Shown here piece after piece: positions 2,145 to 53,570 of a DNA stretch of 64,000 bases. Numbering within the stretch: position 1 is the first letter of the stretch; every line of letters starts with the position of its first letter. Both the position numbers and the translations under genes were made by a program. The notes under the pieces were generated by a model that saw only the letters and a list, made by a program, of their open reading frames with translations, was not told the DNA's origin and did not search any database. This stretch comes from Eledone cirrhosa (lineage: Eukaryota): the NCBI GenBank assembly GCA_964016885.1, contig OZ024740.1, positions 396,614,001 to 396,678,000 of the forward strand, read 5' to 3'.

Positions 2145-3485
2145 AGGTTGGGGTCCACCAGGGCTCTGTTCTTAGCCCCCTCCTGTTTATCATAGTCCTG
2201 TAGGCAATAACGGAGGAGTTTAAGACCGGATGCCCATGGGAACTCCTGTATGCTGATGACCTTGCACTTATAGCTGAATCTATGGTAGAACTAGAGAATA
2301 AATTCCAAACTTGGAAGCAGGGACTAGAAAGATAGGGTCTCAAAGTCAACATGACAAAGACTAAGGAACCCAGATCCCCTCAGGGAAATGGCCTTGCTCA
2401 GTATGTAGGAAAGGTGTAGGTAGGAACTCCATTCTCTGCCCCAAATGCAAACAATGGGTACACAAGAGATGTAGCGGGATCTCAGGAAGCTTAATTAAGA
2501 ATGTAGGCTTCACATGCAGCAGCTGTGCTGGGACAGCAAGCAGCAAAAACCTACAGGAAACAAGTACCACCAATCTCTGGGAGGGCTCTGTAGAAACAGT
2601 AGACAGCTTCTGCTACCTAGGTGACCGAATTAGCAGCGGAGGTGGGTGTTCAGAAAGTACAATAACTAGGGTAAGAACGGGATGGAAGAAGTTTAGGGAA
2701 CTACTACCACTGCTAGCTGCAAAAGGCTTCTCCCTCAGAATGAAAGGCAGACTGTATGATGCGTGTACCCGAACAGCGATGTTGCATGGTAGTGAGACCT
2801 GGGCGCTGAAGGTGGAAGACTTACGTAGATTAGAGAGAAACGAAGCCTGCATGCTCCGATGGATGTGTAACAGTAATATACGTGAACGACAAAGCATAAA
2901 TGAATTGAGAGAGAGACTGAGCATAAGAGGAATCAAATGCTGTGTGCAGGAGAGGCGGTTGCGCTGGTATGGATATGTGATGCGTATGAAGGATGACAGC
3001 TGCATAAAAAGGTGCAGAGCACTAGAAGTCGATGGAAACCGCGGAGTGGGGAGACCCAAGAAGACCTGGGATGAGGTGATAAAAGCCGACCTTACCCAAT
3101 TACACCTCTCAAAGGCAATGACACACGACCGTGACCTCTGGCGTCACGCAGTAATACAGAGTACCCGACCTCCCATGGGTACAAGCTGAAGCATATAGAC
3201 AATATGCCCCCACACCCCCTACCGCAAGGTGGTCGTGGAGGTGCCACGGCAAAAAAGCACCCAGCCCACACTGTAAAGTGGACGTGTAGGCGCCACGAAA
3301 AAGCACCCAGCACTCACTGTAAATAAGGTTGGTGTTAGGAAGGGCATCCAGCTGTAGAAATCAAGCCAGAATCAGTTCCTGTATGAGCAAGGCATGGTCA
3401 GCCAACCAGAGACTGCTCACAACAGGACAACTTGTCTAACCCATGCTAGCGTGGAAGAATGGACGTAAAACAGTGATGATGAAAT
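2145..3485 (+). mobile_element. 5'-truncated RTE LINE (RT 3' part, PHD-like finger, 3' UTR)
   Basis: VGVHQGSVLSP, LLYADDL, MLHGSETW, RRLRWYGYVMR and GRPKKTW motifs. 3' UTR shares GGTTGGTGTTAGGAAGGGCATCCAGC and has a (GAT)n-like tail. Confidence 0.9.

Positions 3486-7655: not shown

Positions 7656-7710
<55 letters not shown>
7231..7710. repeat. Compound (TA)n/(CA)n/(CAT)n microsatellite
   Basis: Seen directly in the sequence. Confidence 0.95.
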
Positions 7711-7714
<4 letters not shown>

Positions 7715-7824
7715 GGTAAACGGAATAGAAAATGCTGACAAATTGTTCACAGTGAAAAATAGTTTAATTAGGAATAAGTGATAATTAGTAATAGTATTGG
7801 TTAGTATTAAGTTTTGGTTTTAAG

Positions 7825-7860
7825 TTTTACCGGTTGTGCATTTCTAATGCTTTTCAAAAA
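7825..7860 (-). ncRNA. Degenerate minimal hammerhead-like motif, inverted arm of element 1
   Basis: Minus strand reads TTT-TTGAAAA-GCATT.AGA.AATGC-ACAA-CCGGT-A-AAA. GAAA has become ACAA. Confidence 0.5.
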
Positions 7861-8224
7861 TAATTTTGAGATAGAGCGTACGTGATGTTTGCTCTGATCT
7901 GATTAGTTTGGGGAATTCTACCTCTTTTTATGTTAAAAAAGTGGCTCCAGCGGTATTAAAATAAGTTTTGCGCCAATTCGTGTTGCAAAAATTCTTGTGG
8001 TCAAAACAATTTTGATTGGTCGGTAGAGGTCATGTGAATGTAAAAAATTGATTTTGCGCCAAATGTAGGTTTGTGTCGGCTGACTGAGAGATAAGTCTTT
8101 CACAACAAATATGTGTGTGTGTGTGTGTGTGTAGTGGTAGTAAAGAGGTTCGTTGTTGTGATAATGGTCAGCAGGGATGTGTGTGCGAACCGCAGCCTGT
8201 TGACAGTTCAAATGCCTATTAAGA

Positions 8225-8285
<61 letters not shown>

Positions 8286-8399
8286 CAGAGTAATTCGTGG
8301 TAGAGGGATGGTCAGTAGGAATGTGTCTGTAAGTGTGTGGGGGATATTTTAACATGTTAAAAGATATTTTTTCAGCTCTTATCTTATACGGAGAAGTGT

Positions 8400-8459
<60 letters not shown>

Positions 8460-8615
8460 CTCTTTGTATGTTAGTGTGTCTGTAAGTGTGTGGGGGATAT
8501 TTTAACATGTTAAAAGATATTTTTTCAGCTCTTGTCTTATACGAAGAAGTGCGCGTGTGTGTGTGTGTGTGTATATGTCTCTTTGTATGTTAATGTACGC
8601 GTGTGTATGTGTGTG

Positions 8616-8663
<48 letters not shown>

Positions 8664-9865
8664 AGAATGTGTGTGTGTGTGTGTGTGTGTGGGTGGATCA
8701 GTATTTATTTCTGTTAAAATGGTGTACATTATTATATATTTTCAAAGAAGGACAACGTTTTATAGTAAAACACAATTTCACATGCGCATCAGAAAATCTA
8801 ATATATGTATTAACTTGCTCAGGTTGTCGAGAACAATACATAGGCCAGACCAAAAACAGCCCCCGCCAACGCATGACTGTCCATAGATCCCAAATTAAAA
8901 TACGGGAATGCAGGAAAATACCACTGAGTGAAGACATTGATACCTGTGCCGCCCAAAATCATCCCAACTTCAGAATCTTTCCCCTCTACAAATTTAAAGA
9001 TAATGCCACCCACACCCAGCGCATCAGCAATGAATCTCACTTTATTAACAAATACGGACCCGTCTAAACACTTCTCCCTAAGACGAACCCACAACATACA
9101 CACGTCAACATACATACCTACATCTCTACCCACATATAAACACAATGACATACGTAAACACACGTTCTATGGTGCAACACAAATAGACACAAATTTGCAT
9201 ACCTTTTGATGTCTATAGATATAAACGTGCCGACACACACACATACATAAATGCACACATGCATTGCACACTGATGGGCACATACATATTTGTGCACAGG
9301 TATTCCAATACGGCAAGGCCTAATGAATTCCCCTTGCAGTACGTACAATCTGGACACACTCCAGATACATATTTGTGCACAGGTATACAATTTCTGGACA
9401 CACTCCAGATACATGTGTACAATTTGTGCACAGGTATACAATTTGTGCACGGGTATACAAGTTCTGGACACACTCCAGATACATATTTGTGCACAGGTAT
9501 TCCAATACGACAGTACGTACAATCTGGACACACTCACACACACCTTGGTATTATGCCAATACTATATATCATTTCACACCTTTTATTATTAAGGTTTTTG
9601 ATGTTCTATTGAGAGAATCGATTTTACTGAAAATATCGAATAATGTACACCATTTTAACGGAAATAAATACTGACCCCCCCCACACACATTCTCTCTCTC
9701 ACACACACACATACACACATATATACACACACACATACACACGCGTACATTAACATACAAAGAGACATACACACACACTTCTCCGTATAAGATAAGAGCT
9801 GAAAAAATATCTTTTAACATGTTAAAATATCCCCACACACTTACAGACACACTAACATACAAAGA

Positions 9866-9936
<71 letters not shown>

Positions 9937-10427
9937 CTCCGTATAAGACAAGAGCTGAAAAAATATCTTTTAACATGTTAAAATATCCCCCACACACTTA
10001 CAGACACATTCCTACTGACCATCCCTCTACCACGAATTACTCTGCTACACACACACACACACACACACTTGTCTTAATAGGCATTTGAACTATCAACAGG
10101 CTGCGGTTCGCACACACATCCCTGCTGACCATTATCACAACAACGAACCTCTTTACTACCACTACACACACACACATATTTGTTGTGAAAGACTTATCTC
10201 TCAGTCAGCCGACACAAACCTACATTTGGCGCAAAATCAATTTTTTACATTCACATGACCTCTACCGACCAATCAAAATTGTTTTGACCACAAGAATTTT
10301 TGCAACACGAATTGGCGCAAAACTTATTTTAATACCGCTGGAGCCACTTTTTTAACATAAAAAGAGGTAGAATTCCCCAAACTAATCAGATCAGAGCAAA
10401 CATCACGTACGCTCTATCTCAAAATTA

Positions 10428-10463
10428 TTTTTGAAAAGCATTAGAAATGCGCAACCGGTAAAA
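10428..10463 (+). ncRNA. Variant minimal type I hammerhead-like motif (UUGAAAA core, GCAA in place of GAAA)
   Basis: TTT-TTGAAAA-GCATT.AGA.AATGC-GCAA-CCGGT-A-AAA. Same architecture and relative position as the motif in element 2. Confidence 0.6.
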
Positions 10464-10605
10464 CTTAAAACCAAAACTTAATACTAACCAATACTATTAC
10501 TAATTATCACTTATTCCTAATTAAACTATTTTTCACTGTGAACAATTTGTCAGCATTTTCTATTCCGTTTACTAATATATCATAACTTGTGTGTTACACC
10601 TCTAT

Positions 10606-12965: not shown

Positions 12966-13589
12966 GTGATTTGAGGGAAATTCAGCAACTAAATCTACAG
13001 AAGAATCTTCATTGGCTCAAATAAAATCTGTTGAAGTAACTGGCCAATTGCCAAAGTTAGAAAGGATATGATTATATTTTTACAAAACATTTACCACCTG
13101 GTCTTTAAATACTATTAACAAAGTTCTTTCTTTTGAAATAATTTGAAATAACTTTTCCTACAGACATTGTTCTGTAGATACTTAGGTTGGATACTGACAA
13201 TATCAAATCTCACCAATCTCACTGGAAGTGGCAGCAAAGCTTACAGGGCACTGTTCCCTTTCCCTTGACTAACTTATACAATGTAAGATACAGATTCATT
13301 ATGAAAAGCAAAGTTGATGGTCTGTAATTTAGTCAAATATTATCGACTAGTATATATCAACATTGCTTTTGACAAAATAGCAGACACACTAACTAGTTGC
13401 TAACACACTAATGTTGCTCTTTAACAAAATAACTGGTCAGTAACTCAGTATAAACTAATATTAATCTTTGACAAGATGAAGATCAGTAATTGACCACTGT
13501 ACACTAGCATTGATCTTTGACAAGACAACAGTAAGTGACCAGTATATACTAATATTGCTCTTTGGCGAGATGGCAGGTAAGTACCTGAC

Positions 13590-16500
13590 CAGTACATACT
13601 AATGTTGCTCTTTGACGGGATGACAGTAAGTGACCATTACATACTAATGTTGCTCTTTGACAGGATGACAGTAAGTGACCAGTACATACTAATGTTGCTC
13701 TTTGACAGGATGACAGTAAGTGACCTGTACATACTAATATTGCTCTTTGACAGGATGACAGTAAGTGACCATAACATACTAATATTGCTCTTTGACAGGA
13801 TGACAGTAAGTGACATGTACATACTAATGTTGCTCTTTGACAGGATGACAGTAAGTGACCATTACATACTAATGTTGCTCTTTGACAGGATTACAGTAAG
13901 TGACCATAACATACTAATGTTGCTCTTTGACAGGATGACAGTAAGTGACCATAACATACTAATGTTGCTCTTTGACAGGATGACAGTAAGTGACCATAAC
14001 ATACTAATGTTGCTCTTTGACAGGATGACAGTAAGTGACCATAACATACTAATGTTGCTCTTTGACAGGATGACAGTAAGTGACCAGTACATACTAATAT
14101 TGCTCTTTGACAGGATGACAGTAAGTGACCATTACATACTAATGTTGCTCTTTGACAGGATGACAGTAAGTGACCATAACATACTAATGTTGCTCTTTGA
14201 CAGGATGACAGTAAGTGACCAGTACATACTAATGTTGCTCTTTGACAGGATGACAGTAAGTGACCAGACCATACTAATATTGCTCTTTGACAGGATGACA
14301 GTAAGTGACCAGTACATACTAATATTGCTCTTTGACAGGATGACAGTAAGTGACCAGTACATACTAATGTAGCCCTTTGACAGGATGACAGTAAGTGACC
14401 AGTACATACTAATGTAGCCCTTTGACAGGATGACAGTGAATGACCAGTACATACTAATGTTGCTCTTTGACAGGATGACAGTGAATGACCAGTACATACT
14501 AATGTAGCCCTTTGACAGGATGACAGTAAGTGACCTGTACATACTAATGTTGCTCTTTGACAGGATGACAGTGAATGACCAGTACACACTAATGTTGCTC
14601 TTTGACAGGATGACAGTGAATGACCAGTACATACTAATGTTGCTCTTTGACAGGATGACAGTAAGTGACCATAACATACTAATGTTGCTCTTTGACAGGG
14701 TGACAGTGAATGACCAGTACATACTAATGTTGCTCTTTGACAGGATGACAGTGAATGACCAGTACATACTAATGTTGCTCTTTCACAGGATGACAGTAAG
14801 TGACCAGTACATACTAATGTAGCCCTTTGACAGGATGACAGTGAATGACCAGTACACACTAATGTTGCTCTTTGACAGGATGACAGTGAATGACCAGTAC
14901 ATACTAATGTTGCTCTTTGACAGGATGACAGTGAATGACCAGTACACACTAATGTTGCTCTTTGACAGGATGACAGTAAGTGAACAGTACATACTAATGT
15001 TGCTCTTTGACAGGGTGACAGTGAATGACCAGTACATACTAATGTTGCTCTTTGACAGGATGACAGTAAGTGACCAGACCATACTAATATTGCTCTTTGA
15101 CAGGATGACAGTAAGTGACCAGTACATACTAATATTGCTCTTTGACAGGATGACAGTAAGTGACCAGTACATACTAATGTTGCTCTTTGACAGGATGACA
15201 GTAAGTGACCAGACCATACTAATGTTGCTCTTTGACAGGGTGACAGTAAGTGACCAGTAGATACTAATGTTGCTCTTTGATAGGATGACAGTGAATGACC
15301 AGTACACACTAATGTTGCTCTTTGACAGGGTGACAGTGAATGACCAGTACACACTAATGTTGCTCTTTGACAGGGTGACAGTGAATGACCAGTACATACT
15401 AATGTTGCTCTTTGACAGGGTGACAGTAAGTGACCAGTAGATACTAATGTTGCTCTTTGATAGGATGACAGTGAATGACCAGTACACACTAATGTTGCTC
15501 TTTGACAGGATGACAGTGAATGACCAGTACATACTAATGTTGCTCTTTGACAGGATGACAGTAAGTGACCATAACATACTAATGTTGCTCTTTGACAGGA
15601 TGACAGTGAATGACCAGTACACACTAGTGTTGCTCTTTGACAGGATGACAGTGAATGACCAGTACATACTAATGTTGCTCTTTGACAGGATGACAGTAAG
15701 TGACCAGTACATACTAATATTGCTCTTTGACAGGATGACAGTAAGTGACCATTACATACTAATGTTGCTCTTTGACAGGATGACAGTAAGTGACCATAAC
15801 ATACTAATATTGCTCTTTGACAGGATGACAGTAAGTGACCAGTACATACTAATATTGCTCTTTGACAGGATGACAGTAAGTGACCAGTACATACTAATGT
15901 TGCTCTTTGACAGGATGACAGTAAGTGACCAGACCATACTAATATTGCTCTTTGACAGGATGACAGTAAGTGACCAGTACATACTAATATTGCTCTTTGA
16001 CAGGATGACAGTAAGTGACCAGTACATACTAATGTAGCCCTTTGACAGGATGACAGTAAGTGACCAGTACATACTAATGTAGCCCTTTGACAGGATGACA
16101 GTGAATGACCAGTACATACTAATGTTGCTCTTTGACAGGATGACAGTGAATGACCAGTACATACTAATGTAGCCCTTTGACAGGATGACAGTAAGTGACC
16201 TGTACATACTAATGTTGCTCTTTGACAGGATGACAGTGAATGACCAGTACACACTAATGTTGCTCTTTGACAGGATGACAGTGAATGACCAGTACATACT
16301 AATGTTGCTCTTTGACAGGATGACAGTGAATGACCAGTACACACTAATGTTGCTCTTTGACAGGGTGACAGTGAATGACCAGTACATACTAATGTTGCTC
16401 TTTGACAGGATGACAGTGAATGACCAGTACATACTAATGTTGCTCTTTCACAGGATGACAGTAAGTGACCAGTACATACTAATGTAGCCCTTTGACAGGA

Positions 16501-17935
16501 TGACAGTGAATGACCAGTACACACTAATGTTGCTCTTTGACAGGATGACAGTGAATGACCAGTACATACTAATGTTGCTCTTTGACAGGATGACAGTGAA
16601 TGACCAGTACACACTAATGTTGCTCTTTGACAGGATGACAGTAAGTGAACAGTACATACTAATGTTGCTCTTTGACAGGGTGACAGTGAATGACCAGTAC
16701 ATACTAATGTTGCTCTTTGACAGGGTGACAGTGAATGACCAGTACACACTAATGTTGCTCTTTGACAGGGTGACAGTGAATGACCAGTACACACTAATGT
16801 TGCTCTGTGACAGGGTGACAGTGAATGACCAGTACACACTAATGTTGCTCTTTGACAGGGTGACAGTGAATGACCAGTACATGCTAATGTTGCTCTTTGA
16901 CAGGGTGACAGTAAGTGACCAGTAGATACTAATGTTGCTCTTTGATAGGATGACAGTGAATGACCAGTACACACTAATGTTGCTCTTTGACAGGGTGACA
17001 GTGAATGACCAGTACACACTAATGTTGCTCTTTGACAGGGTGACAGTGAATGACCAGTACATACTAATGTTGCTCTTTGACAGGGTGACAGTAAGTGACC
17101 AGTAGATACTAATGTTGCTCTTTGATAGGATGACAGTGAATGACCAGTACACACTAATGTTGCTCTTTGACAGGATGACAGTGAATGACCAGTACATACT
17201 AATGTTGCTCTTTGACAGGATGACAGTAAGTGACCATAACATACTAATGTTGCTCTTTGACAGGATGACAGTGAATGACCAGTACACACTAGTGTTGCTC
17301 TTTGACAGGATGACAGTGAATGACCAGTACACACTAATGTTGCTCTTTGACAGGATGACAGTGAATGACCAGTACACACTAATGTTGCTCTTTGAGAGGG
17401 TGACAGTGAATGACCAGTACACACTAATGTTGCTCTTTGACAGGATGACAGTGAATGACCAGTACACACTAAAGTTGCTCTTTGACAGGATGACAGTGAA
17501 TGACCAGTACACACTAATGTTGCTCTTTGACAAGATGACAGTGAATGGCCAGTACACACTAATGTTGCTCTTTGACAGGATGACAGTGAATGACCAGTAC
17601 ACACTAATGTTGCTCTTTGAGAGGGTGACAGTGAATGACCAGTACACACTAATGTTGCTCGTTGACAGGATGACAGTGAATGACCAGTACACACTAATGT
17701 TGCTCTTTGACAGGGTGACATTGAATGACCAGTACACACTAATGTTGCTCTTTGACAGGGTGACAGTGAATGACCAGTACATACTAATGTTGCTCTTTGA
17801 CAGGATGACAGTGAATGACCAGTACACACTAATGTTGCTCTTTGACAGGGTGACAGTCAATGACCAGTACATACTAATGTTGCTCTTTGACAGGATGACA
17901 GTGAATGACCAGTACATACTAATGTTGCTCCATGC
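13590..17935. repeat. 45-bp satellite array (about 96 units)
   Basis: Monomer GACCAGTACATACTAATGTTGCTCTTTGACAGGATGACAGTAAGT. Degenerate units at 13360-13590 and 17935-18005. Confidence 0.97.
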
Positions 17936-19324
17936 CAGGATGATAGGCACGCAACTGACCAGTGTACATTAACATTTATCTTTGACAATATGAGAGACAG
18001 ACCAGTAACTGTTGTTTTTTAATTTGAAAGCCTAAGTTGAATGAAACTCCCTAATAACTATTGACAGAGTGTTCTATATGTGTCTATTTTTCTTAATTTC
18101 TTTTAAATAATCAATTTGAACCACATTATTAAGCTGGTGATAGTAGATAGGCATTCTTTCATAACATTATTTTAGATTTAAAGATGAATATTCTAAAACT
18201 AGAGAGATGTCACCATAGGATTAAGGTAGTTTTTGGCAGGTTGGTATCAAAGGATTAATATTTTACAACCCTATTTTATCCAAGAATAAAAATTAAACTG
18301 AAAGAAAAGAAAATGTTCAATTTTACTGTTTTGTTTTATTTTACTTTATTATTTTGTAAGTTTGACAGACTAGAAATTATTGGATGGCCACCACCATTTA
18401 ATGTCTATTTTCCATGCTTGCAGGGTTAGACAGGCTGTTACATTATGAGGCTAGACAGGTCAGGTGATCACATCTTGCTCATATGATTCATTTTTAGCCT
18501 GGTTTGTTATGGTTGGATACCCTTCCTAACACCAGCTGTTTTACAGGGTGGACTTTATCGTGCCACCAATATGGCCATCTTACAGAATGGACTGGGTGCT
18601 TCTTGTCATCACACCAGCACTGGGGGCAAGCAAGTGCCGTATCTTGGTGGTGCATGTGTATATATATTTAATATTTAGTTATGTTAGTATGTGGTTGGAA
18701 TGTGAGAAGAGATTGGGAAAATCATCATCATCATCATTTAACGTTCATTTTCCATGCTAGCATGGGTTAGACGGGTTGTCCCATTGGAGCCAAGTTGTGT
18801 CAGGTGACTGTGTCTTGATTATATAGGACTGTTTCTGGCTAGGTTTCTATGGCAGGATGCCCTTCCTAATAAATAGAAGTATTCACTTCTTAAGAAAGAT
18901 TGTTTAACATAGGTTATAGAATAGTAGATTACACTACGGTTATGTAAAATGATATTTTGCTGTAATGGGGGTAAGAAAAAGTAGATTAGAGAAAAAAAGC
19001 AGATATTGTTGTAGCAATACTAAGACGACAGAAAAGGATCAGTTTTATAGTTGTTAAGTGTAAGAGACACTATACAATAATGTGTTTTCCAATCAAATAG
19101 ATGGTAATTTTTAAAATGTGTTTTGCTACTTAAATGATCAAATAAAGAGTACTATTCCAAATATGGTATCAGTATTCCATGGAAAAGAATCACAACTAAC
19201 TGAAGTAAAAGATTGTCAGGCTATAGGTTCCTCCATTACCATAAATTAACTTTCAATATCAATATCTAGAAGTATAGCCAACTGTTCTAACTGGTAGGTT
19301 ATTGTATAATTTACAAGTTTTTGT

Positions 19325-21865: not shown

Positions 21866-24214
21866 CTGGAAGGTAAAAAAGAAATGAAAGACAAAGATGT
21901 ATTTGTGACTGAAATAAAACAAATTTATGTTGTTTTACATTTATGATTCTCTGGTATGTAACTACATAGTTCAGATTATTGGTGGCATAGCAGTAAAACA
22001 TTTAATGCTTATTATACAACCATACAAGCTTACTGGTTGAAAGACTTTATTGGAATTAAAGTAGTTAATGTTTTACATTGCTCTTGTTTCAAACAGATAA
22101 GTACATTTCAATGAGATTTTCATAGGTGAACAGTAAATATATATATGTTTCAGTTAGAAGCAAAACAAACAGACAAATGCATTAACTGAACAATATACAA
22201 ATGTATAAATAATAATAAATTGATAAATAGATGTATTAAAGGGCATACAAAAACTAATGAAAAGAGTAGTGGAACATTTGAACATTAATGGAAGTATTCA
22301 CAGAAGGAAGGAGAGTTGTAGCAGAACAAGGAAAAAATATTTGGCATAAAAAAAATGTTCAGTTCCCTTAAGAAATGGAATTGGATTGGCTTAGAAATGT
22401 GGGATGGAACTGGTAAAGCCTGGAAATATTTTCAGTAGAAATGTCAGATTTATAGTTGAAAGTGACAGGAAGCTTTGAATATAATAAAGGGGTGTTGTTA
22501 TAAATTCTTATTTAGGGTAAAATATTCTTTTATGATTTACATTACAATTCCTTCCTATCCCATTTCTGTTATTAATTGGGAGATTCAAGAGGAAAGGTAA
22601 ATGATAGGAAAACTTTGATTTTGAGAACACTTGATTAAGTATATTTAACTTTCTTAATTCTTATTGAATTAAGAACAACTTCAGTTGAAGTACCGACACC
22701 GAATTACATTTAATCCAAGCAAATAATTCTTTAAAAATATTTCCCCAATATTTCAGTAGTAATCATCAAAATCTTGGAGTTGTCTAAGACTTCTAGCATT
22801 GTTTTAAAACCATCCTGTCTATTTCTATTTTCTCACAGATTAAATCAGAGTGAATACCATGACCTTTATACCTGAAGCACTATAAAGAATGTATAGATAC
22901 TCAGTTTATATTTTCAAATTTTCTATTAAACAGACAAACTTATAAAAAAGTGTTTCAATATGTACATCCTTAATGCTACATCTTCTCACTCTCATCATAG
23001 CACTAGTGCCACAAGAATAAGCTCCTACATGGCATCTCAACCCACAAAAAATAGCATCCCAATTTCTCTCATATCACATCCTGTTGTCTTAAAAAAGAAG
23101 GAAAACTTACAAAAAGATTTGGTGTCAGAAAAGGCATCTGACCATGATGATGATAAGGATGAGGATGATAAATACATACATACAATCATACATACACACA
23201 TACAGTTTTCCTTTCTCCTCCACACATACAAACATCATTTCCTTCAAAGCAACAGAAAAGATGTCAGACGGTAAGGTGCATCCAATTCAAGGGAGATTTC
23301 GTTATTTTTATCAGGTCAAGTAACTTTGCTTGGTTTCATTTCCATTTTGTTATATTACAAAAAGGGATTCATCTTTTCAATTTGTTTGTCTGTTTCAGCC
23401 ATGTCACACTTTCCCCCTCCTGTTTCCGCCTTTGTTTCTCTCAATTTCTCTCTCTTTCCTCTACTTCTGCAATATATATATATATATATATACATATTAC
23501 AGAAAAATGTTGCTTATCTTAGTTGTTACGTTGTAACATCTAGAGGATAAGCCGTCCTAACGAACCAAAACAGTTCATGTCAGTAGTTTATCCTAGGTAG
23601 GTGATAATGAGTGATAGAGTATTAATTTATCAAATAATTGTTTCTACTTTTGGCACAAGGCCAGCAATTACCCAATGCATTACTGGTACTTTATCTTATT
23701 GACGCGGTAAGGATGAAAGGCAAAGTTAACCTCGGCGGGATTTGAACTCAGAATCTTAACTACCAAATAATGGTAGTTAAGATGGGATTAATTCACCATA
23801 ATTGTTTATTGCATTATATATATTTCTGTTACATGGTTATTCATGTGACTTCGTCAGATGCTTACGCAATCATAGGTGCAATGATGCAATCATTGAGATA
23901 TGCTGGTGGCCATGTAAAACTATCCAGGATGGTTCTTTAATTGTGGATTGTCAAAGCTCTTTCGTCACACGTTCTGTGACTTACTCTGTGACTTCCTCAG
24001 TGACTACCTTTGTTGTTATTTTATGTCTCTCCTTTGTTCTATCCTACATGATCTTGTTTGGTGAGCTGTGTACTTGGGCTGCATATGCATTATATCTGGG
24101 TTTGTGTGTGTGTGTTTGTGTTTTTTAAAAATTAATTAATTTATTTATATGTTTATTTACTCGTCTCTAGTTGGTTGCTTGACAACATACATACATGCAT
24201 GAGAATTGCAGCAT

Positions 24215-27417: not shown

Positions 27418-28315
27418 CGAGGTGTGTCAGAAAAGTTCCAGGACTGATGTCACAAAAGATTTATTTCAAACCCAAACTTCACACTAAGAGTTTTCTCCTT
27501 CAAAGTAATCCCCCTGGAGTATGTAACTGTAATCTTAGCTCTCTGCAGCGATCAAACTTTTTTCTTCATAATTTTATATACGTGTCTCCTCTGTTTCAGG
27601 TCGTCAAGCAATGAGCACAGAGCAACGAACAAACTTGAAAACTCCGTCAGAAGCACTGGGATTGCTGCAGCAAGTGTATGGAGATGAGACGATGTCACAC
27701 TCATATGTTTTTGAGTGGTGCAAGAGGTTTAAAGAAGGACGCAAGGACGTGGAAGATGACCCCAGGAGCGGAAGGCCCTCAACAACCAGGACTGAGGTCA
27801 ACGTTGAGCGCGTCAGGCAGATGGTGCGTAGCGATCGTCGGCTGACTGTTCGACTGATTTCAAATGAGCTGGGCATGAATCGGGACAGCGTCTGGAAGAT
27901 TCTCACTGACGATTTGGACATGCGGAAAACCTGCACGAAGATGGTGCCAAAACTGCTGAACGATGACCAGAAGGGTCGATGCATGCAAGTGTGCCAGGAC
28001 ATCCTCGAGTGTCTTGAAACCGAACCAGACTTGCTAGGGACAGTCATCACCAGTGATGAGTCATGGATCTTCGAGTATGACCTGGAGGGGGACCCATTTT
28101 GAAGATGTGGACGACATCAAAAAGGCTGTAACGATGGAACTGCGGAGGATCCCGAAAAAATCCTTCCAGGAGTGCATGCAAGCGTGGCAGAAAGGATGGA
28201 AAAGTGCATTAGACTCCAGGAGGATTACTTTGAAGGAGAAAACTCTTAGTGTGAAGTTTGGGTTTGAAATAAATCGTTTGTGACATCAGTCCTGGAACTT
28301 TTCTGACCCACCTCG
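27418..28315 (+). mobile_element. Internally deleted mariner with 103-bp inverted termini and TA target duplication
   Basis: Inverted repeats at 27418-27520 and 28213-28315, TA on both sides. Transposase motifs VFEW.KRFKEGR..VEDDPRSGRPST, KMVPKLL, ITSDESW and C-terminal DYFEG. Confidence 0.93.
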
Positions 28316-38882: not shown

Positions 38883-39215
38883 GGAGGCACATGGCTTAGT
38901 GGTTAGAGCATTCGCCTTGCAATCGAAAGGTTGTGAGTTCAATTCTCAGACCGGGTGATGTGTTGTTTCCTTGAGCAAGACACTTTATTTCACATTACAC
39001 CAGTTTACTCAGCTGTAGAAATGAGATGATAGGGACTGGGTTCCCTATCATTCCACTGCAAAGTGGTCGTGGAGGTGTCACGACAAAAAAGCACCCAGCA
39101 CTCACTGTAAATGAGGTTGGTGTTAGGAAGGGCATCCAGCTGTAGAAATCAAGCCAAAATCAGTTCCTGTCCCATCCTTGCAAGCAGGGAAAAGCGGATG
39201 TAAAATGAAATGATG
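38883..39215 (+). mobile_element. SINE family A: tRNA head, CORE-like domain, hairpin, RTE-like 3' tail
   Basis: A box TGGCTTAGTGG, B box GAGTTCAATTC, core TCCTTGAGCAAGACACTT. Tail shared with the RTE 3' UTRs at 3230-3380 and 47160-47310. Confidence 0.88.
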
Positions 39216-40469: not shown

Positions 40470-40805
40470 CATTTCATTTCATTTTACGTCCGCTTTTCCC
40501 CTGCTTGCAAGGGTGGGACGGGAACTGATTCTGGCTTGATTTCTACAGCTGGATGCCCTTCCTAACACCAACCTCATTTACAGTGAGTACTGGGTGCTTT
40601 TTTGCCGTGGCACCTACACGCCCACTTTACAGTGGAATGATAGGGATCCCAGTCCCTATCATCTCATTTCTACAGGTGAGTAAACTGGAGCAATGTGAAA
40701 TAAAGTGTCTTGCTCAAGGAAACAGCACATCGCCCGGTCTGAGAATTGAACTCACAACCTTTCGATTGCAAGGCCAATGCTCTAACCACTAAGCCATGTG
40801 CCTCC
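40470..40805 (-). mobile_element. SINE family A, full copy
   Basis: Reverse complement of 38883-39215. Confidence 0.88.
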
Positions 40806-40978
<173 letters not shown>

Positions 40979-41104
40979 TGAGGTTTTTTTTACAAAATGA
41001 AAAATAACCGAGGTGTCCTACACGAGTGAAAGTATAAAGAAAAAGAGATGAAATCGAAAATGCAACTGGAGTCTTATTTTTTAAATATATATATTTATTT
41101 GGTT

Positions 41105-41142
41105 CCTTTACCGGTTTCGCAGTTCTTCTGCTTTTCAAAAGG
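41105..41142 (-). ncRNA. Minimal type I hammerhead ribozyme, U3-A8 core variant (sense arm of element 2)
   Basis: Minus strand reads CCTT-TTGAAAA-GCAG.AAGAA.CTGC-GAAA-CCGGT-A-AAGG, followed by AATAAA. Confidence 0.8.
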
Positions 41143-41658
41143 TGAGTTGAGATGGAGGGTCTGTGGTTTTTCTCACATCTGGTTGGTCTCTGAATATTAC
41201 TTGTTTTATATGGAAAAAGTGGCTCGAAATGCCAGGTTTTTCGAGAAGTAATTTGATTGGTTTGTCAATAATTATAATAAATTTCGCGCCAGTTCGCGTT
41301 ACAATATTTCTTCAAATAAGAGGGGGGGGGGGGTTGTCGCAGGTTGTTTTTTCATATATGAGTGTTTGAATTTCTTTTTACTTGAAAAAAGGAGGCTCAC
41401 GAAGGCTTTTTTTTGGTTGGTTATAAATGAAATTATGGCTGTCACGTGAACAAATTTTCATTAAATTTTTGTGCCCTTATTTGGAAATCCATTCTGTAGC
41501 CTTTTTAGAGAATTTTTTGATAAGTGAAAGATAATGGTCAAGAGAAAGGGATGGGAGAATTGTTCTGGTTCAGTGAATATGGTTAGTTCGCTGGGGTGTC
41601 AGAATTCAGATTTTCTATTGAATAAAGAAAGTAAAGATATGTGTGTTTATTTGTGTGC

Positions 41659-41705
<47 letters not shown>

Positions 41706-42512
41706 AATTTCTTTACTTTAAAAAAAGGTGGCTCACGAATGCTTTTTTTTAATAAACATGATTTGATTGGTTATAAATGAAATTTGGCTGTCACGTGAAC
41801 AAGTTTTCATTACATTTTTGCGCCCTTATTTGGAAAACTATTCTGTAGTCTTTATAGCGAATGTTATGACAATGGAAAGATAGTGGTCAAGAGAAATGGG
41901 ATGGGAGAATTGTTCTGGTTCAGTGAATATGCTTAGTTCGCTGGGGTGTCAGAGTTCAGATTTTCTATTGAAGTGAAGATATGTATGTTTATTTGTGTGC
42001 TTGTGTATGTGTGTGTGTGTGTATGTGTGTATTGGAAGATGATTCTATTAGTAGAGATGGGGGAGAGAGTTGTGTGTGTGTGTATATGGGTGTTATGTGT
42101 GTGTGTGTGCGAGTATGTTAAGATGGAGAGAATATATATTTTGTGTGTGTGTATATATATGTGTGTAGGAAAGTGGTTCTATTAGTAGAAATGGGGAGGG
42201 AGTTGTGGGTGTGGGGGTTGTTATGTGTGTGTATGGGTGTTATGTGTGTGGGAGTATGGTTAGCATGTTAAGATGAAGAGAATATATATATATATATATA
42301 TTGTGTGTGTGTGTATGTGTGTGTGTAGGAAAGTGATTCCTTTAGTAGGAATATTTTTGAATGAACATATTTTCCTTACTTATTCGTGTTTGCTGTTGTA
42401 TTGTCAGTGCAAACGTATGTTAAGGTTTATTTAGTTCGGGTTTTTATTTTCTAAAGTAGAAGGTGTTATGTGTGTGTGTGTATGTCATATTATGGTGTTG
42501 ACATAATGTATA

Positions 42513-43780
42513 TTAAACCATATTTAATGTTGGTCTATATTTTTGAATAAACATATTTTCCTTATTTATTCGCATTTGTTCTGTTGTATTGTTAGCGCAA
42601 AGGTAAAATGGGAAGACTTGGAATTTGGGTGTCTTATTACTTGCGCAAATGTCTAGATGTGCACTTAGTGGTATCTGTCTCGTGGTTGGATCTCGTAATT
42701 GTTGGCGATGAACTGTCATTCTGTTTCTGAGTGTGAGTTTAGTTTGTCCTATATAATCTTCATTGCATCCTTTACATTTAATGGCATAAATTAAATTTTT
42801 TGATGAGCAAGTGAAGTGATTTTTTACAGTAAAATTTTGTCCTGATTTAAATGTCTATGTGTTGCCTTCAATGAGGTGAGTGCAGGTTCCACAATTAGAG
42901 CGACCACATTTTTTGATACTTGGTTGTGGGTTTGTGGTAGGTAATTTGGCATTGGTGAGTAATGTTTTCAGTGATTTTGGTTGTCTTTTGCTTTTGATTA
43001 TTTTGTGTGTTTCAAGGGCTTTTTTCATTCTTGGGTTTTGTTTTAGTAGTGGGATGTTATTGTGAATAGTGTTGTAAGCTTCCGCATTTCTTGGGTTGTG
43101 TGTTGAGATATATGATAGAATATTGGACGTACCTTGAATTTGTTTCTGTTTCCGTAATTCATCAATGCCTATTGCTTTAGCCCTTTCTATTCCATTATTT
43201 ATTAGTAATAGTGGGTACTCTCTCTCGAGTAGAATTTCCTTTAATTCTTGAAGTCTTTTATTTCGCGTTTCATAATTGGAGACAATTGTGCAAATTTTTC
43301 TTGCTAGGTTAAAAGGAATGTTCGTCTTCGTGTGCTTTGGATGGTTGGAGGTGAATAGCAGATATTGTTTGGAATCTGTTGGTTTGTAGTGTATGTCAGT
43401 TTCGATATTTGTGTCTTTTTTTAAGATTAAGATGTCCAGAAATGGGAGTTGATCTTGGCTGTATTCCATTGTGAATTGGATGTGGTTATTGATGCCGTTT
43501 ATTAAGTTTTTGAAATCCTTCAGTTGGTCGAGTGTGTGGGACCAAAGAATGAGGCAATCATCCAAGTAGCATTTCCAATTCTCTGATAAATATTTGTGGA
43601 AGTTCAATCCGTATTTTGATTTGGACTGTTCATATATCTGGACTTCTAAGTATGCCATGACTAAGTTGGCATAAGTTGGAGCGGCTTTTGTACCCATCGC
43701 AGTCCCCGATATTTGCTTGTAAGTATTGCCATCGAAATCAAAAAAGTTGTTCTGTAGGATGAATTTTAATCCCTGTAATG
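42513..43780 (-). pseudogene. Penelope RT, Cys-rich linker and GIY-YIG endonuclease; one in-frame TAG at 42855-42857
   Basis: YKQISGTAMGTKAAPTYANLVM, YLDD, LPFLDI, HYKPTDSKQYL, KKCGRSNCGTC, LIYAIKCKGCNEDYIGQT, RMTVHR. Confidence 0.92.
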
Positions 43781-44423
43781 AAAACTTGTTCACGTGACAG
43801 CCAAATTTCATTTATAACCAATCAAATCACGTTTATTAAAAAAAAGCCTTCGTGAGCCACCTTTTTTTAAAGTAAAGAAATTCAAACACACACACACACA
43901 CACACACGCACACACAAATAAACACACATATCTTTACTTTCTTTATTCAATAGAAAATCTGAATTCTGACACCCCAGCGAACTAACCATATTCACTGAAC
44001 CAGAACAATTCTCCCATCCCTTTCTCTTGACCATTATCTTTCACTTATCAAAAAATTCTCTAAAAAGGCTACAGAATGGATTTCCAAATAAGGGCACAAA
44101 AATTTAATGAAAATTTGTTCACGTGACAGTCATAATTTCATTTATAACCAACCAAAAAAAAGCCTTCGTGAGCCTCCTTTTTTCAAGTAAAAAGAAATTC
44201 ATACACTCATATATGAAAAAACAACCTGCGACAACCCCCCCCCCTCTTATTTGAAGAACTATTGTAACGCGAACTGGCGCGAAAATTATTATAATTATTG
44301 ACAAAACAATCAAATTACTTCTCGAAAAACCTGGCATTTCGAGCCACTTTTTCCATATAAAACAAGTAACATTCAGAGACCAACCAGATGTGAGAAAAAC
44401 CACAGACCCTCCATCTCAACTCA

Positions 44424-44461
44424 CCTTTTGAAAAGCAGAAGAACTGCGAAACCGGTAAAGG
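44424..44461 (+). ncRNA. Minimal type I hammerhead ribozyme, U3-A8 core variant (inverted arm of element 2)
   Basis: Stem I CCTT/AAGG, core TTGAAAA at 44428-44434, stem II GCAG/CTGC, GAAA at 44448-44451, palindrome ACCGGT, GUA triplet at 44455-44457. Confidence 0.8.
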
Positions 44462-44531
44462 AACCAAATAAATATATATATTTAAAAAAAAAAATAAGAC
44501 TCCAGTTGCATTTTCGATTTCATCTCTTTTT

Positions 44532-44601
<70 letters not shown>

Positions 44602-44608
<7 letters not shown>

Positions 44609-47332
44609 GCACCTCCCAACATAGACTGATAGTTAGCGACCTAATAGTCAGGACGAGGCGTACTAGACAACAGAAGAGGACTATCCTCAGGAGAAAAATA
44701 TGGAAGCTAAAGGACCCCACAGCCAGAAATAAATTCAAAAGTATACCACTTGATGCTTTCGACAGTAAGGAAGAGCAATTAGAGTCGTACAATATAGAGG
44801 AGCAGTGGGAATTCCTGAAAGCAAACCCGCTGATGGCGGCAGACGAAGTCTGTGGCTGGAGCAGGCCTGTAGGCAGGAGGAGAGTAACATGGTGGTGGAA
44901 CAGTAAGGTGGAGGGGTCAATTAAGGCCAAAAAGCAGGCTTGGAAAGTATGGCGGGATGGGGGAAGCAGAGAAGACTATCAAGTGGCCAGGAGGGAAGCT
45001 AGGAGACAAGTGTACTTCGCAAGAAGGGAAGCAGAGGAAAGAAAGTTCAAGCATGTTCTACAACGCGAGGACCAAAAACGTGAGGTGTTCAGGATTGCTA
45101 GGCAATGTGTCAAGGAAAACCGTGATATTGTCGGGGAGAAGTGTGTCCTTAATGATGACGGCGTACTTGCCATCACCGACGCTGATAAGAAGGTAGCTTG
45201 GAAGTGTCACTATGAAAGGCTACTAAATGAGGAGAATAAATGGGAGAAAGACAGTCTCCCCCACATCGACCCAATAGAGGGACCAGCAGTGTTAGTCGAG
45301 GGTAGTATAAGGCAATCAAAGATATGAAGACGGGTAAGGCAGCTGGGCCTTCGGAAATAGTTGCCGAGATGCTGAAGGCATCTGGTACGGTGGGACACAC
45401 CATGGTCACCCGGATAGTTAACCAAGTCGTACAGAATGTGGTTGTTCCGAAGGACTGGCGTAGCAGCATCATCGTTAACTGTTATAAGGGTAAAGGAGAT
45501 GCCCTAGATAGGAGTAACTATAGAGGCATTAAATTAATCGACCAGGTCATGAAGGTCACGGAAAAAGTAATAGCGCAACTAATCAGAGAGAGAATTGATC
45601 TAGATGAAATGCAGTTCGGGTTTGTGTCAGGCAAAAGTACCACAGACGCTCTTTTCATTGTACGACAACTACAGGAGAAGTACCTAGCTAAAAGTAAACC
45701 CCTATACTTAGCTTTTGTCGACTTGGAGAAAGCCTTCGACAGAGTCCCCCGTTCCATTATCTGGTGGGCTCTTAGAAAACTAGGTGTTGACGAATGGCTT
45801 GTGAGAGCTATACAAGCCATGTATAAAGAAACAGTCAGCAAGGTTAGAATTAACAACGAATATAGTGAAGAGTTTAGCGTAAAAGTTGGCGTCCATCAGG
45901 GCTCTGTTCTCAGCCCCCTACTATTTATTATTGCCCTTCAGGCTATAACAGAGGAGTTCAAGACCGGTTGCCCATGGGAACTCCTATACGCAGATGACCT
46001 AACACTCATAGCTGAATCAATGGCCGAGCTAGAGAAGAAATTCCAAACATGGAAGCACGGTCTAGAATCAAAAGGCCTTAAAATTAACCTGGCTAAGACT
46101 AAAGTTCTAGTTTGTAAGAAAGAAAATAAGGCGGCGGTCCCTTCCGGGAAGTGGCCATGCTCAGTGTGTAGGAAAGGTGTAGGTAGAAACTCCATTTTGT
46201 GTCCCAAATGCAAAGTATGGGTGCATAAAAGATGTAGTGGGATCACAGGTAAGCTAACTAAGAACATAGATTTTATATGTGGCCGGTGCTCTGGTGCAAT
46301 AAGTAGCAGCAAGTGCCCACAAATACTAGCTCTTTCAATTGCGCAGAGGGTTCTATAGAAATAGTGGACAGCTTCCGTTACCTGAGTGACAAAATCAGCA
46401 GTAGGGGAGGGTGCTCTAAAAGTACAGTAGCTAGAGTCAGAACTGGATGGAAAAAGTTCAGAGAGCTTATACCACTATTAGCCGCTAAAGGGTTCTCCCT
46501 AAAAATGAAAGGCAGGTTATATGATGCCTGCATACGAACAGCAATGCTGCATGGCAGTGAGACCTGGGCATTGTGTGCAGAGGATATACACAGACTAGAG
46601 AGGAACGAAGCTTGCGTGCTCCGCTGGATGTGTAATAGTAATATACGTGAACGGCTAAGCATAAACGAACTAAGGAAAAAATTAGAAATAAGAGGGATCA
46701 GATGTTGTTTACTCGAGAGAAGGCTACGTTGGTATGGTCACGTGATGCGCATGAAAGACGACAGCTGTATAACAAAGTGCAGGGCAATAAATATAGACGG
46801 TAGCCACGGAGTAGGCAGACCCAGAAAAACCTGGGACGACATGATAAATTCCGACCTCACACGCTTACACCTCTCCAAGACAATGTCACTGGACCGAGAC
46901 CTTTGGCGGTACTCAGTAATAGAGAAGACCCGCCTTACCTAAATACAAAGTAAAACCTACTACAGTCAGTAGGTATCTCTAACAAAACACCCCCCATCCC
47001 ACCACCCCCACCCCATCCACACCGCCCCTTTCAATGTAAAGTTATGTTGGTGCCACAACATCCAGGCCAAAACAAATGAGATCGTGTAGGTGTCACGACA
47101 AAAACACACAGTCCACGCTGTAATGTGGCCGTGTAGGCAACACGGTAAAAACCTCCCAGCCCCACACTGTAAATGTGGTTGGTGTTAGGAAGGGCATCCA
47201 GCTGTAGAAAACCCGCCAGACAGTCCTATGCGAGCAAGACAATCACTCTTGCCTCAAGTGGGAAAACCCCCGTCCAAACCCATGCAAGCGTGGAACACGG
47301 ACGTTAAACGTTGATGATGATGATGATGATGA
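44602..47332 (+). mobile_element. 5'-truncated RTE LINE, young, two frameshifts
   Basis: ORF pieces at about 44608-45320, 45324-46358 and 46313-46942: end of endonuclease, full RT (YADD), PHD-like finger, C-terminus, 3' UTR and (GAT)n tail. Confidence 0.95.
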
Positions 47333-53151: not shown

Positions 53152-53570
53152 GGAGGCACATGGCTTAGTGGTTAGAGCATTGGCCTGGCAATCAAAAGGT
53201 TGTGAGTTCAATTCTCAGACCGGGTGATGTGTTGCTTCCTTGAGCAAGACACTTTATTTCACATTGCTTCAGTTTACTCAGCTGTAGAAATGAGATGCTT
53301 TTTTGGGTGCTTTTTTTGCTGGGTGCTTTTTTGCCGTGGCACCTCCACGACCACTTTACAGTGGAATGATAGGGACCCCAGTCCCTATCATTCCACTGCA
53401 AAGTGGTCGTGGAGGTGCCACGGCAAAAAAGCACCCAGCACTCACTGTAAATGAGGTTGGTGTTAGGAAGGGCATCCAGCTGTAGAAATCAAGCCAGAAT
53501 CAGTTCCCGCCCCACCCTTGCAAGCAGGGAAAAAGCGGACGTAAAAACGAAACGAATGAATGAAATGAAT
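53152..53570 (+). mobile_element. SINE family A with an extended 122-nt internal hairpin
   Basis: Head, core and tail as in 38883; inverted repeat at 53318-53439. Confidence 0.88.

Follow-up and report, generated by a model that had tools for sequence, protein, structure and literature searches.

A U3-A8 minimal hammerhead motif in Penelope-like elements of Eledone cirrhosa and a related family with a changed core base

Two copies of a minimal type I hammerhead motif with a U3-A8 core are present in the window, i.e., the whole 64,000-nucleotide stretch of Eledone cirrhosa DNA that was analysed. On sequence comparison, we consider it likely that they represent the U3-A8 minimal hammerhead of a Penelope-like element (PLE), which occurs twice through an inverted copy of the element's 3' end and which, in active elements, would cut slowly at best, as a dimer formed through ACCGGU and probably helped by a protein. 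The parts of this explanation differ in strength. That the motif is an inherited PLE hammerhead is close to certain. That family A, to which the pair belongs, would cleave slowly in active elements as a dimer with protein help, and so process some multimeric transcripts, could go either way. The U3-A8 swap is not new: PMC3088659 describes it in natural hammerheads and PMC4209133 in those of PLEs. An earlier, sequence-only reading of this DNA overstated its novelty, and the present case adds one more host.

The insertion that carries the pair is a 5'-truncated, dead PLE whose 3' end is repeated beside it in inverted orientation. Its coding part is a 5'-truncated frame (42516–43773, minus strand) in which a reverse transcriptase (RT) with YLDD is followed by a CX4CxxC linker and a GIY-YIG endonuclease (EN; PF01541, E 8.3e-8). 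The linker reads CGRSNCGTC, which fits CX2-5CxxC and is placed before the endonuclease, and the RVT_1 match (E 0.0013) is below the cut-off. The frame holds a single in-frame TAG (42855–42857) and is 94% identical to an uninterrupted copy (L047). The left arm (41033–41814, minus strand) is the 3' end of the element, comprising 3' UTR and pLTR, and aligns with the right arm (43774–44538, plus strand), an inverted, 5'-truncated copy of that end joined where the ORF is truncated; the arms show 9 mismatches in 760 aligned bases. A tail of ~58 nt (40975–41032, minus strand) occurs in the left arm only, and such a tail is described as a PLE signature in PMC8557442 and PMC11167929. The 3' UTR contains a ~330-nt tandem duplication of 85% identity (41359–42030, minus strand), and (TA)n target microsatellites flank the insertion on the left (40808–40928) and on the right (44535–44602).

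The traits of EN+ PLEs are thus present: RT followed by a C-terminal GIY-YIG, a pLTR, an inverted 5'-truncated copy, and a one-sided tail. PMC8557442 describes PLE insertions of this form, in which the 5' end bears the inverted, 5'-truncated copy and the tail is confined to one end. The domain layout points to a Neptune/Nematis-type C-terminal EN+ PLE, the linker being common to both clades. As in the account of such elements by Craig et al. (2021, PMC8557442), there is an RT, a CX2-5CxxC linker, and a GIY-YIG at the C terminus, together with an inverted 5'-truncated copy, a one-end tail, (TA)n targets, and an optional frameshifted ORF1; unlike here, the hammerhead searches described in that source used CUGANGA. 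In the window, the family A motif is placed in the pLTR, 3' of RT-GIY-YIG, and in long copies it lies 5' of ORF1. The long copies contain, in order, the motif, 162–177 nt, a 400-codon ORF1, and a 775-codon RT-EN in the −1 frame. Their tail region extends to the ORF1 start codon, 162–177 nt past the predicted cut. ORF1 overlaps the RT-EN frame in most intact copies (L162–L197 for the long family A copies, L051 for family B), and the overlap contains U UUU UUA in ORF1 phase, likely a programmed frameshift; a frameshifted ORF1 is mentioned for PLEs in PMC8557442.

The two 38-mers, at 41105–41142 (minus strand) and 44424–44461 (plus strand), are identical in sequence. The former belongs to the element's own sense 3' pLTR, with U3 at 41138 and the predicted cut after A17 at 41109; the latter lies in the 3'-end copy that sits inverted on the 5' side of the element, with U3 at 44428 and the predicted cut after 44457. 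The 38-mer parses as CCUU / UUGAAAA / GCAG-AAGAA-CUGC / GAAA / CCGG / UA / AAGG. Stem I has 4 bp (CCUU/AAGG), stem II has 4 bp with G-C first (GCAG/CUGC), and loop II has 5 nt (AAGAA). The core consists of the UUGAAAA and GAAA boxes with paired positions 3 and 8, A15.1-U16.1, and A17, which satisfies H17. In the computed fold, stem III is a short palindrome, ACCGGU, capable of dimer formation. On the plus strand, AATAAA follows 5 nt 3' of the motif (44467–44472). The identical 38-nt motifs, their minimal type I anatomy, and the following AAUAAA, all noted by the sequence-only reading, were confirmed by this parse and by a relaxed hammerhead descriptor, which found on both strands of the window the two motif sites and one AT-rich chance site at 1176. 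An Rfam search over the window gave 67 matches at E ≤ 5, none of them to a hammerhead family. Since the two 38-mers are the two arms of one inversion, their identity does not count as independent conservation. They also lie on opposite strands, so no cis dimer or double hammerhead can form within one transcript; the copies are antisense to each other, and the dimer action noted earlier for Penelope hammerheads does not apply to them as a pair.

Evidence that the motif goes beyond chance comes from the genome. The 29-nt core has 11,638 exact copies in the 3.0-Gb assembly versus none for a reversed control. The U3-A8 pattern has 42,119 matches versus 6,139 for its control, which bears out the expectation that a strict CUGANGA descriptor would miss the motif; in this genome, tens of thousands of motifs escape a search limited to CUGANGA. 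Among nine aligned motifs from five families and their subfamilies, U3, U4, G5, A6, A8, A9, A14, A15.1, CCGG, and U16.1 are invariant, and N7, N17, loop II, and stem II vary. Stem II reads GCAG/CUGC in family A, GCAU/AUGC in B, GAUG/CAUC in C, and GAUGG/CCAUC in E, and that of D begins with a U-U pair. The invariant core in all nine motifs and the covarying stem II speak against the lack of conservation that the sequence-only reading had named as its refutation. Families A, C, D, and E, with RT identity down to ~55–58%, retain G12-A13-A14, U16.1, and H17. Stem I is 1–4 bp long across 10 tabulated U3-A8 motifs and 1–3 bp in the relatives of family A, and its outer pair is lost in half of the family A copies. 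Family A copies differ at position 3 in 64 cases, at position 8 in 44, and at both in none, a pattern expected from post-insertion decay.

Between families, positions 3 and 8 switch jointly. In a tree of 20 RT-EN fragments, all from this genome, families A, B, D, and E group together with a support of 84/73, which is not firm; family G, with a CUGAAGA core, adjoins them, and the 18-row group is supported at 100/99. A distant PLE family has the canonical CUGANGA core, with 21,497 matches genome-wide. C3-G8 is thus found in family G and the distant PLE, and U3-A8 in A, B, D, and E, so the view of C3U and G8A as a compensatory pair is upheld. As a distant PLE family of the same genome has the canonical core, U3-A8 is a property of one PLE lineage and not of the host. 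Judged from these comparisons, it is a lineage trait, fixed in the four RT-linked families (A, B, D, and E). The earlier wording, a lineage trait rather than decay, holds in this respect, but the A13C of family B, as the loss of a consensus core base, tells against its second half.

Two candidate results were rejected. The apparent absence of canonical cores from the genome came from restricting stem III to NCGN: with this limit, the CUGANGA pattern gave 154 matches versus 99 for the control, with one diverged C3-G8 relative among the matches listed, and the 21,497 canonical matches belong to another PLE family. The distant RTs in L059 and L055, to which families C and D had seemed linked, proved to belong to nested insertions of other PLEs. 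Family D goes with a B-like RT (5 loci), and for family C no RT was linkable in 10 longer loci (L115–L123 and L058), so C was left out of the tree. At L055, L059, L016, L046, L094, and L116, PLE lineages are nested in one another's (TA)n tracts, and the assignment of a motif to an RT by proximity alone therefore gives false links.

Element 1 (7708–10580 of the window) belongs to family B. Its sense hammerhead-like motif (10431–10460, plus strand) contains UUGAAAA, stem II GCAU/AUGC, and GCAA as the second box (A13C), and its inverted copy (7828–7857, minus strand) has ACAA, i.e., A13C with a private G12A; stem I consists of 3 bp, all A-U. Element 1 had been said to share the core of the pair with a different stem II, which is correct for the UUGAAAA box and for GCAU/AUGC but not for the second box, GCAA or ACAA in place of GAAA. 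Genome-wide, the second box of family B is GCAA in 11,112 cases versus GAAA in 42, and among the first 100 of 4,195 pattern matches listed, 97 have GCAA, two ACAA, and one GAAA. In older mutagenesis, substitution of A13 is reported to lower hammerhead cleavage strongly. The core change of family B would likely stop cutting. A13 is a consensus core base of the hammerhead according to PMC3088659.

In the RT-EN tree, the sister of family B is family D (100/99). Like A and E, family D has GAAA; A13C is therefore derived. Among the family B loci examined (L048, L051, and L063–L065), L051 and L064 have long RT-EN frames and direct pLTRs. The long frames indicate that the family carried its own machinery and was autonomous. 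The running text of the papers searched reports no PLE family in which A13C is fixed; variant surveys beyond it may include A13 changes. The fixed A13C, and the fact that most copies read through the predicted cut (see below), may mean that cleavage is dispensable. The families can be read, tentatively and at somewhat less than even chances, as a natural knockout series of a PLE hammerhead, from C3-G8 in the sister group to U3-A8 with a shrinking stem I (A, D, and E) and finally to U3-A8 with A13C (B, in more than 11,000 copies). The need for hammerhead cleavage in PLE mobility is termed unclear in PMC8557442, and a successful autonomous PLE with a fixed core change offers a direct and cheap test of it. 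Should family B be unable to cleave, PLE retrotransposition in vivo can do without self-cleavage, and the conserved fold serves some non-catalytic purpose; should it cleave after all, the dimer or a protein context rescues a core base that is held to be invariant. Either outcome bears on what PLE hammerheads are for.

Folding gave ordinary values for family A. The minimum free energy of the monomer is −6.4 kcal/mol (z −0.94), which is not distinctive, and in the lowest-energy monomer and dimer folds U3 is paired with A17 instead of both being free. The computed double-hammerhead fold of two motifs has −18.9 kcal/mol, compared with twice −6.4 kcal/mol for monomers. The lowest-energy dimer (−20.3 kcal/mol) is a non-active form because of the U3-A17 pair. 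In pairwise mutagenesis of a type III hammerhead, as given in PMC9901934, only the C3G/G8C swap strongly rescued.

The genomic copies show how often the predicted cut site is crossed. All 11,638 family A core copies span it. A test of long copies covered 52 loci, of which 31 fall short of ORF1, four are cut within ORF1, and 17 were scored as reaching the ORF1 start. None of the 17 begins at the cut, one begins 2 nt after it, and five begin further downstream; the other 11 extend upstream of the cut, nine with the whole motif. Among the first 100 of 202 matches listed, 38 have a junction exactly at the cut by hand count (estimate ~77), compared with ~15–20 of the first 100 of 226 at −1 (34–45), 16 of the first 100 of 354 at −2 (~57), 23 of the first 100 of 225 at +2 (~52), and 12 of the first 100 of 169 at −14 (~20), all positions being blurred by A runs and TA microhomology. 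Junctions at the cut seem to be in modest excess over the four control positions, and all amount to <1% of copies.

A course of insertion can be proposed from published PLE work. Target-primed reverse transcription would start 75–135 nt 3' of the motif, at two 3' ends, and would copy straight through the motif, mostly from uncut RNA. A fold-back or template switch at 43774 would then give the inverted arm. The window copies would be passengers of a dead insertion, and a transcript of the locus would contain the motif once in sense and once in antisense, inside a 760-bp hairpin. Since most cDNAs cross the cut site, cutting would not be required for each insertion. The genomic copies are in agreement with the anole PLE, for which cleavage is reported to need the element's protein and catalytic mutants to be without effect on insertion in vitro (PMC11167929).

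The main rival, less likely than not, is that the hammerhead is no longer a ribozyme in this PLE lineage and persists in a structural or protein-binding role, e.g., for RT-EN binding, ACCGGU dimerisation, or control of ORF1 translation, with U3-A8 as the first step of relaxation, A13C as the second, and family B as the extreme case. The family B counts argue for it, as 42 GAAA against 11,112 GCAA is about the single-site decay rate of family A (64 and 44 against 11,638), and so does the derived state of A13C in a family that keeps long RT-EN frames and direct pLTRs. A stem I of only 1–4 bp, the crossing of the cut site by most cDNAs, and the in vitro result with the anole catalytic mutants (PMC11167929) point in the same direction. 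However, retention of G12-A13-A14, U16.1, and H17 in families A, C, D, and E at ~55–58% RT identity fits selection for catalysis, and junctions at the cut site are modestly commoner than at the four control positions. In addition, the effect expected of A13C on cleavage derives from older mutagenesis and from the consensus status of the base in PMC3088659.

It is improbable that the motif is an efficient ribozyme, with U3-A8 as a fully equivalent core, which defines the transposition template's 5' end or yields circular RNA. U3-A8 cores are reported to be active in vitro (PMC3088659), and junctions at the cut (38 of the first 100 of 202 matches listed) outnumber those 14 nt upstream (12 of the first 100 of 169); yet the neighbouring positions −2, −1, and +2 give similar estimates (~57, 34–45, and 52 versus 77), all below 1% of copies, no long copy of 17 starts at the cut and one starts 2 nt after it, and the minimal PLE hammerheads described in PMC4209133 are slow. 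A chance look-alike in an AT-rich UTR, multiplied by retrotransposition, would suit the ordinary fold energy (z −0.94), the lack of hammerhead families among the Rfam matches, and the origin of the two copies in one duplication, but it is hardly credible, being refuted by a core that is fixed across families while the stems covary, by a position shared with hammerheads in other PLEs, and by CUGAAGA at the same place in the sister group. The preferred reading thus remains an inherited U3-A8 PLE hammerhead that would cut slowly at best.

Besides the Neptune/Nematis-type PLEs, three published systems offer the closest comparison. Perreault et al. (2011, PMC3088659) described the covariation of C3/G8 to U3/A8 in several natural hammerheads and the activity of such cores in vitro, i.e., the same compensatory change as here; unlike the present motifs, those variants are not linked to PLEs in the section that describes them, and the running text of that paper names no A13 substitution. 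Cervera and De la Pena (2014, PMC4209133) reported the U3-A8 variant in the Cercyon PLEs of Schistosoma mansoni, with ~1,300 hits and opposite-strand pairs, and a PLE motif with UUGAAAA is given in the supplement (row S. mansoni (4)). According to the same paper, the monomer of a PLE minimal hammerhead showed no cleavage and dimers cleaved at a low level. Cercyon PLEs and family A have in common a minimal type I motif located in the pLTR, the U3-A8 pair, the UUGAAAA heptamer, a stem III that is palindromic, copies in the thousands of which most are truncated, and opposite-strand pairs (PMC4209133). Family A differs in its shorter, 4-bp stem II, the lack of a bulged base after A9, the CCGG insert in stem III, the host, and copies that are much more numerous and more alike (11,638 identical); moreover, a sister family with a fixed A13C is present here, and none was seen in the sections of PMC4209133 that were consulted. 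The Poseidon PLE of Anolis carolinensis (Frangieh et al. 2024, PMC11167929) is similar in that its hammerhead lies close to where the ORF begins, and in its tail produced from two RT start sites, AT-rich targets, and uncut RNA as the main template. As described there, it has a canonical C3-G8, belongs to the Poseidon clade, and its hammerhead overlaps the start codon, whereas the motif here lies ~170 nt upstream.

Several further features accompany the hammerheads of this genome. Family G (L031, L038, and L124–L126) has its CUGAAGA core without an ordinary stem II, and the ACCCUA of its loop II has a complement, UAGGGU, ~45 nt downstream, with which it may form a pseudoknot. At ~23954–24000 (minus strand), the window contains a hammerhead-like motif with a canonical core, CUGAGGA, which belongs to the distant PLE family (21,497 matches genome-wide) and has a duplication in loop II. 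In families A, B, C, and E, UCAA is located 3–10 nt 5' of the UUGA box (44415–44431 in the window, and relatives) and is able to pair with UUGA; the pairing extends to 6 bp in family B and could form an off-switch hairpin. Elsewhere in the genome (C1:348863541–348949596), a mini inverted-repeat insertion of family A recurs at intervals of ~9.6 kb within a tandem segmental array.

The window also includes an array of ~97 copies of a 45-nt unit (13451–17970) with long open frames on both strands, and the tRNA-like heads of a dispersed SINE-like repeat at 38892–38949, 40739–40796, and 53161–53218 (Rfam tRNA, 28–35 bits). Two plus-strand segments with RT and C-terminal motifs, at 44600–46942 and 2365–3189, we take to be fragments of RTE-like non-LTR retrotransposons, and the former directly adjoins the right (TA)n flank. 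The segment at 27572–28102 is presumably a mariner-like transposase fragment.
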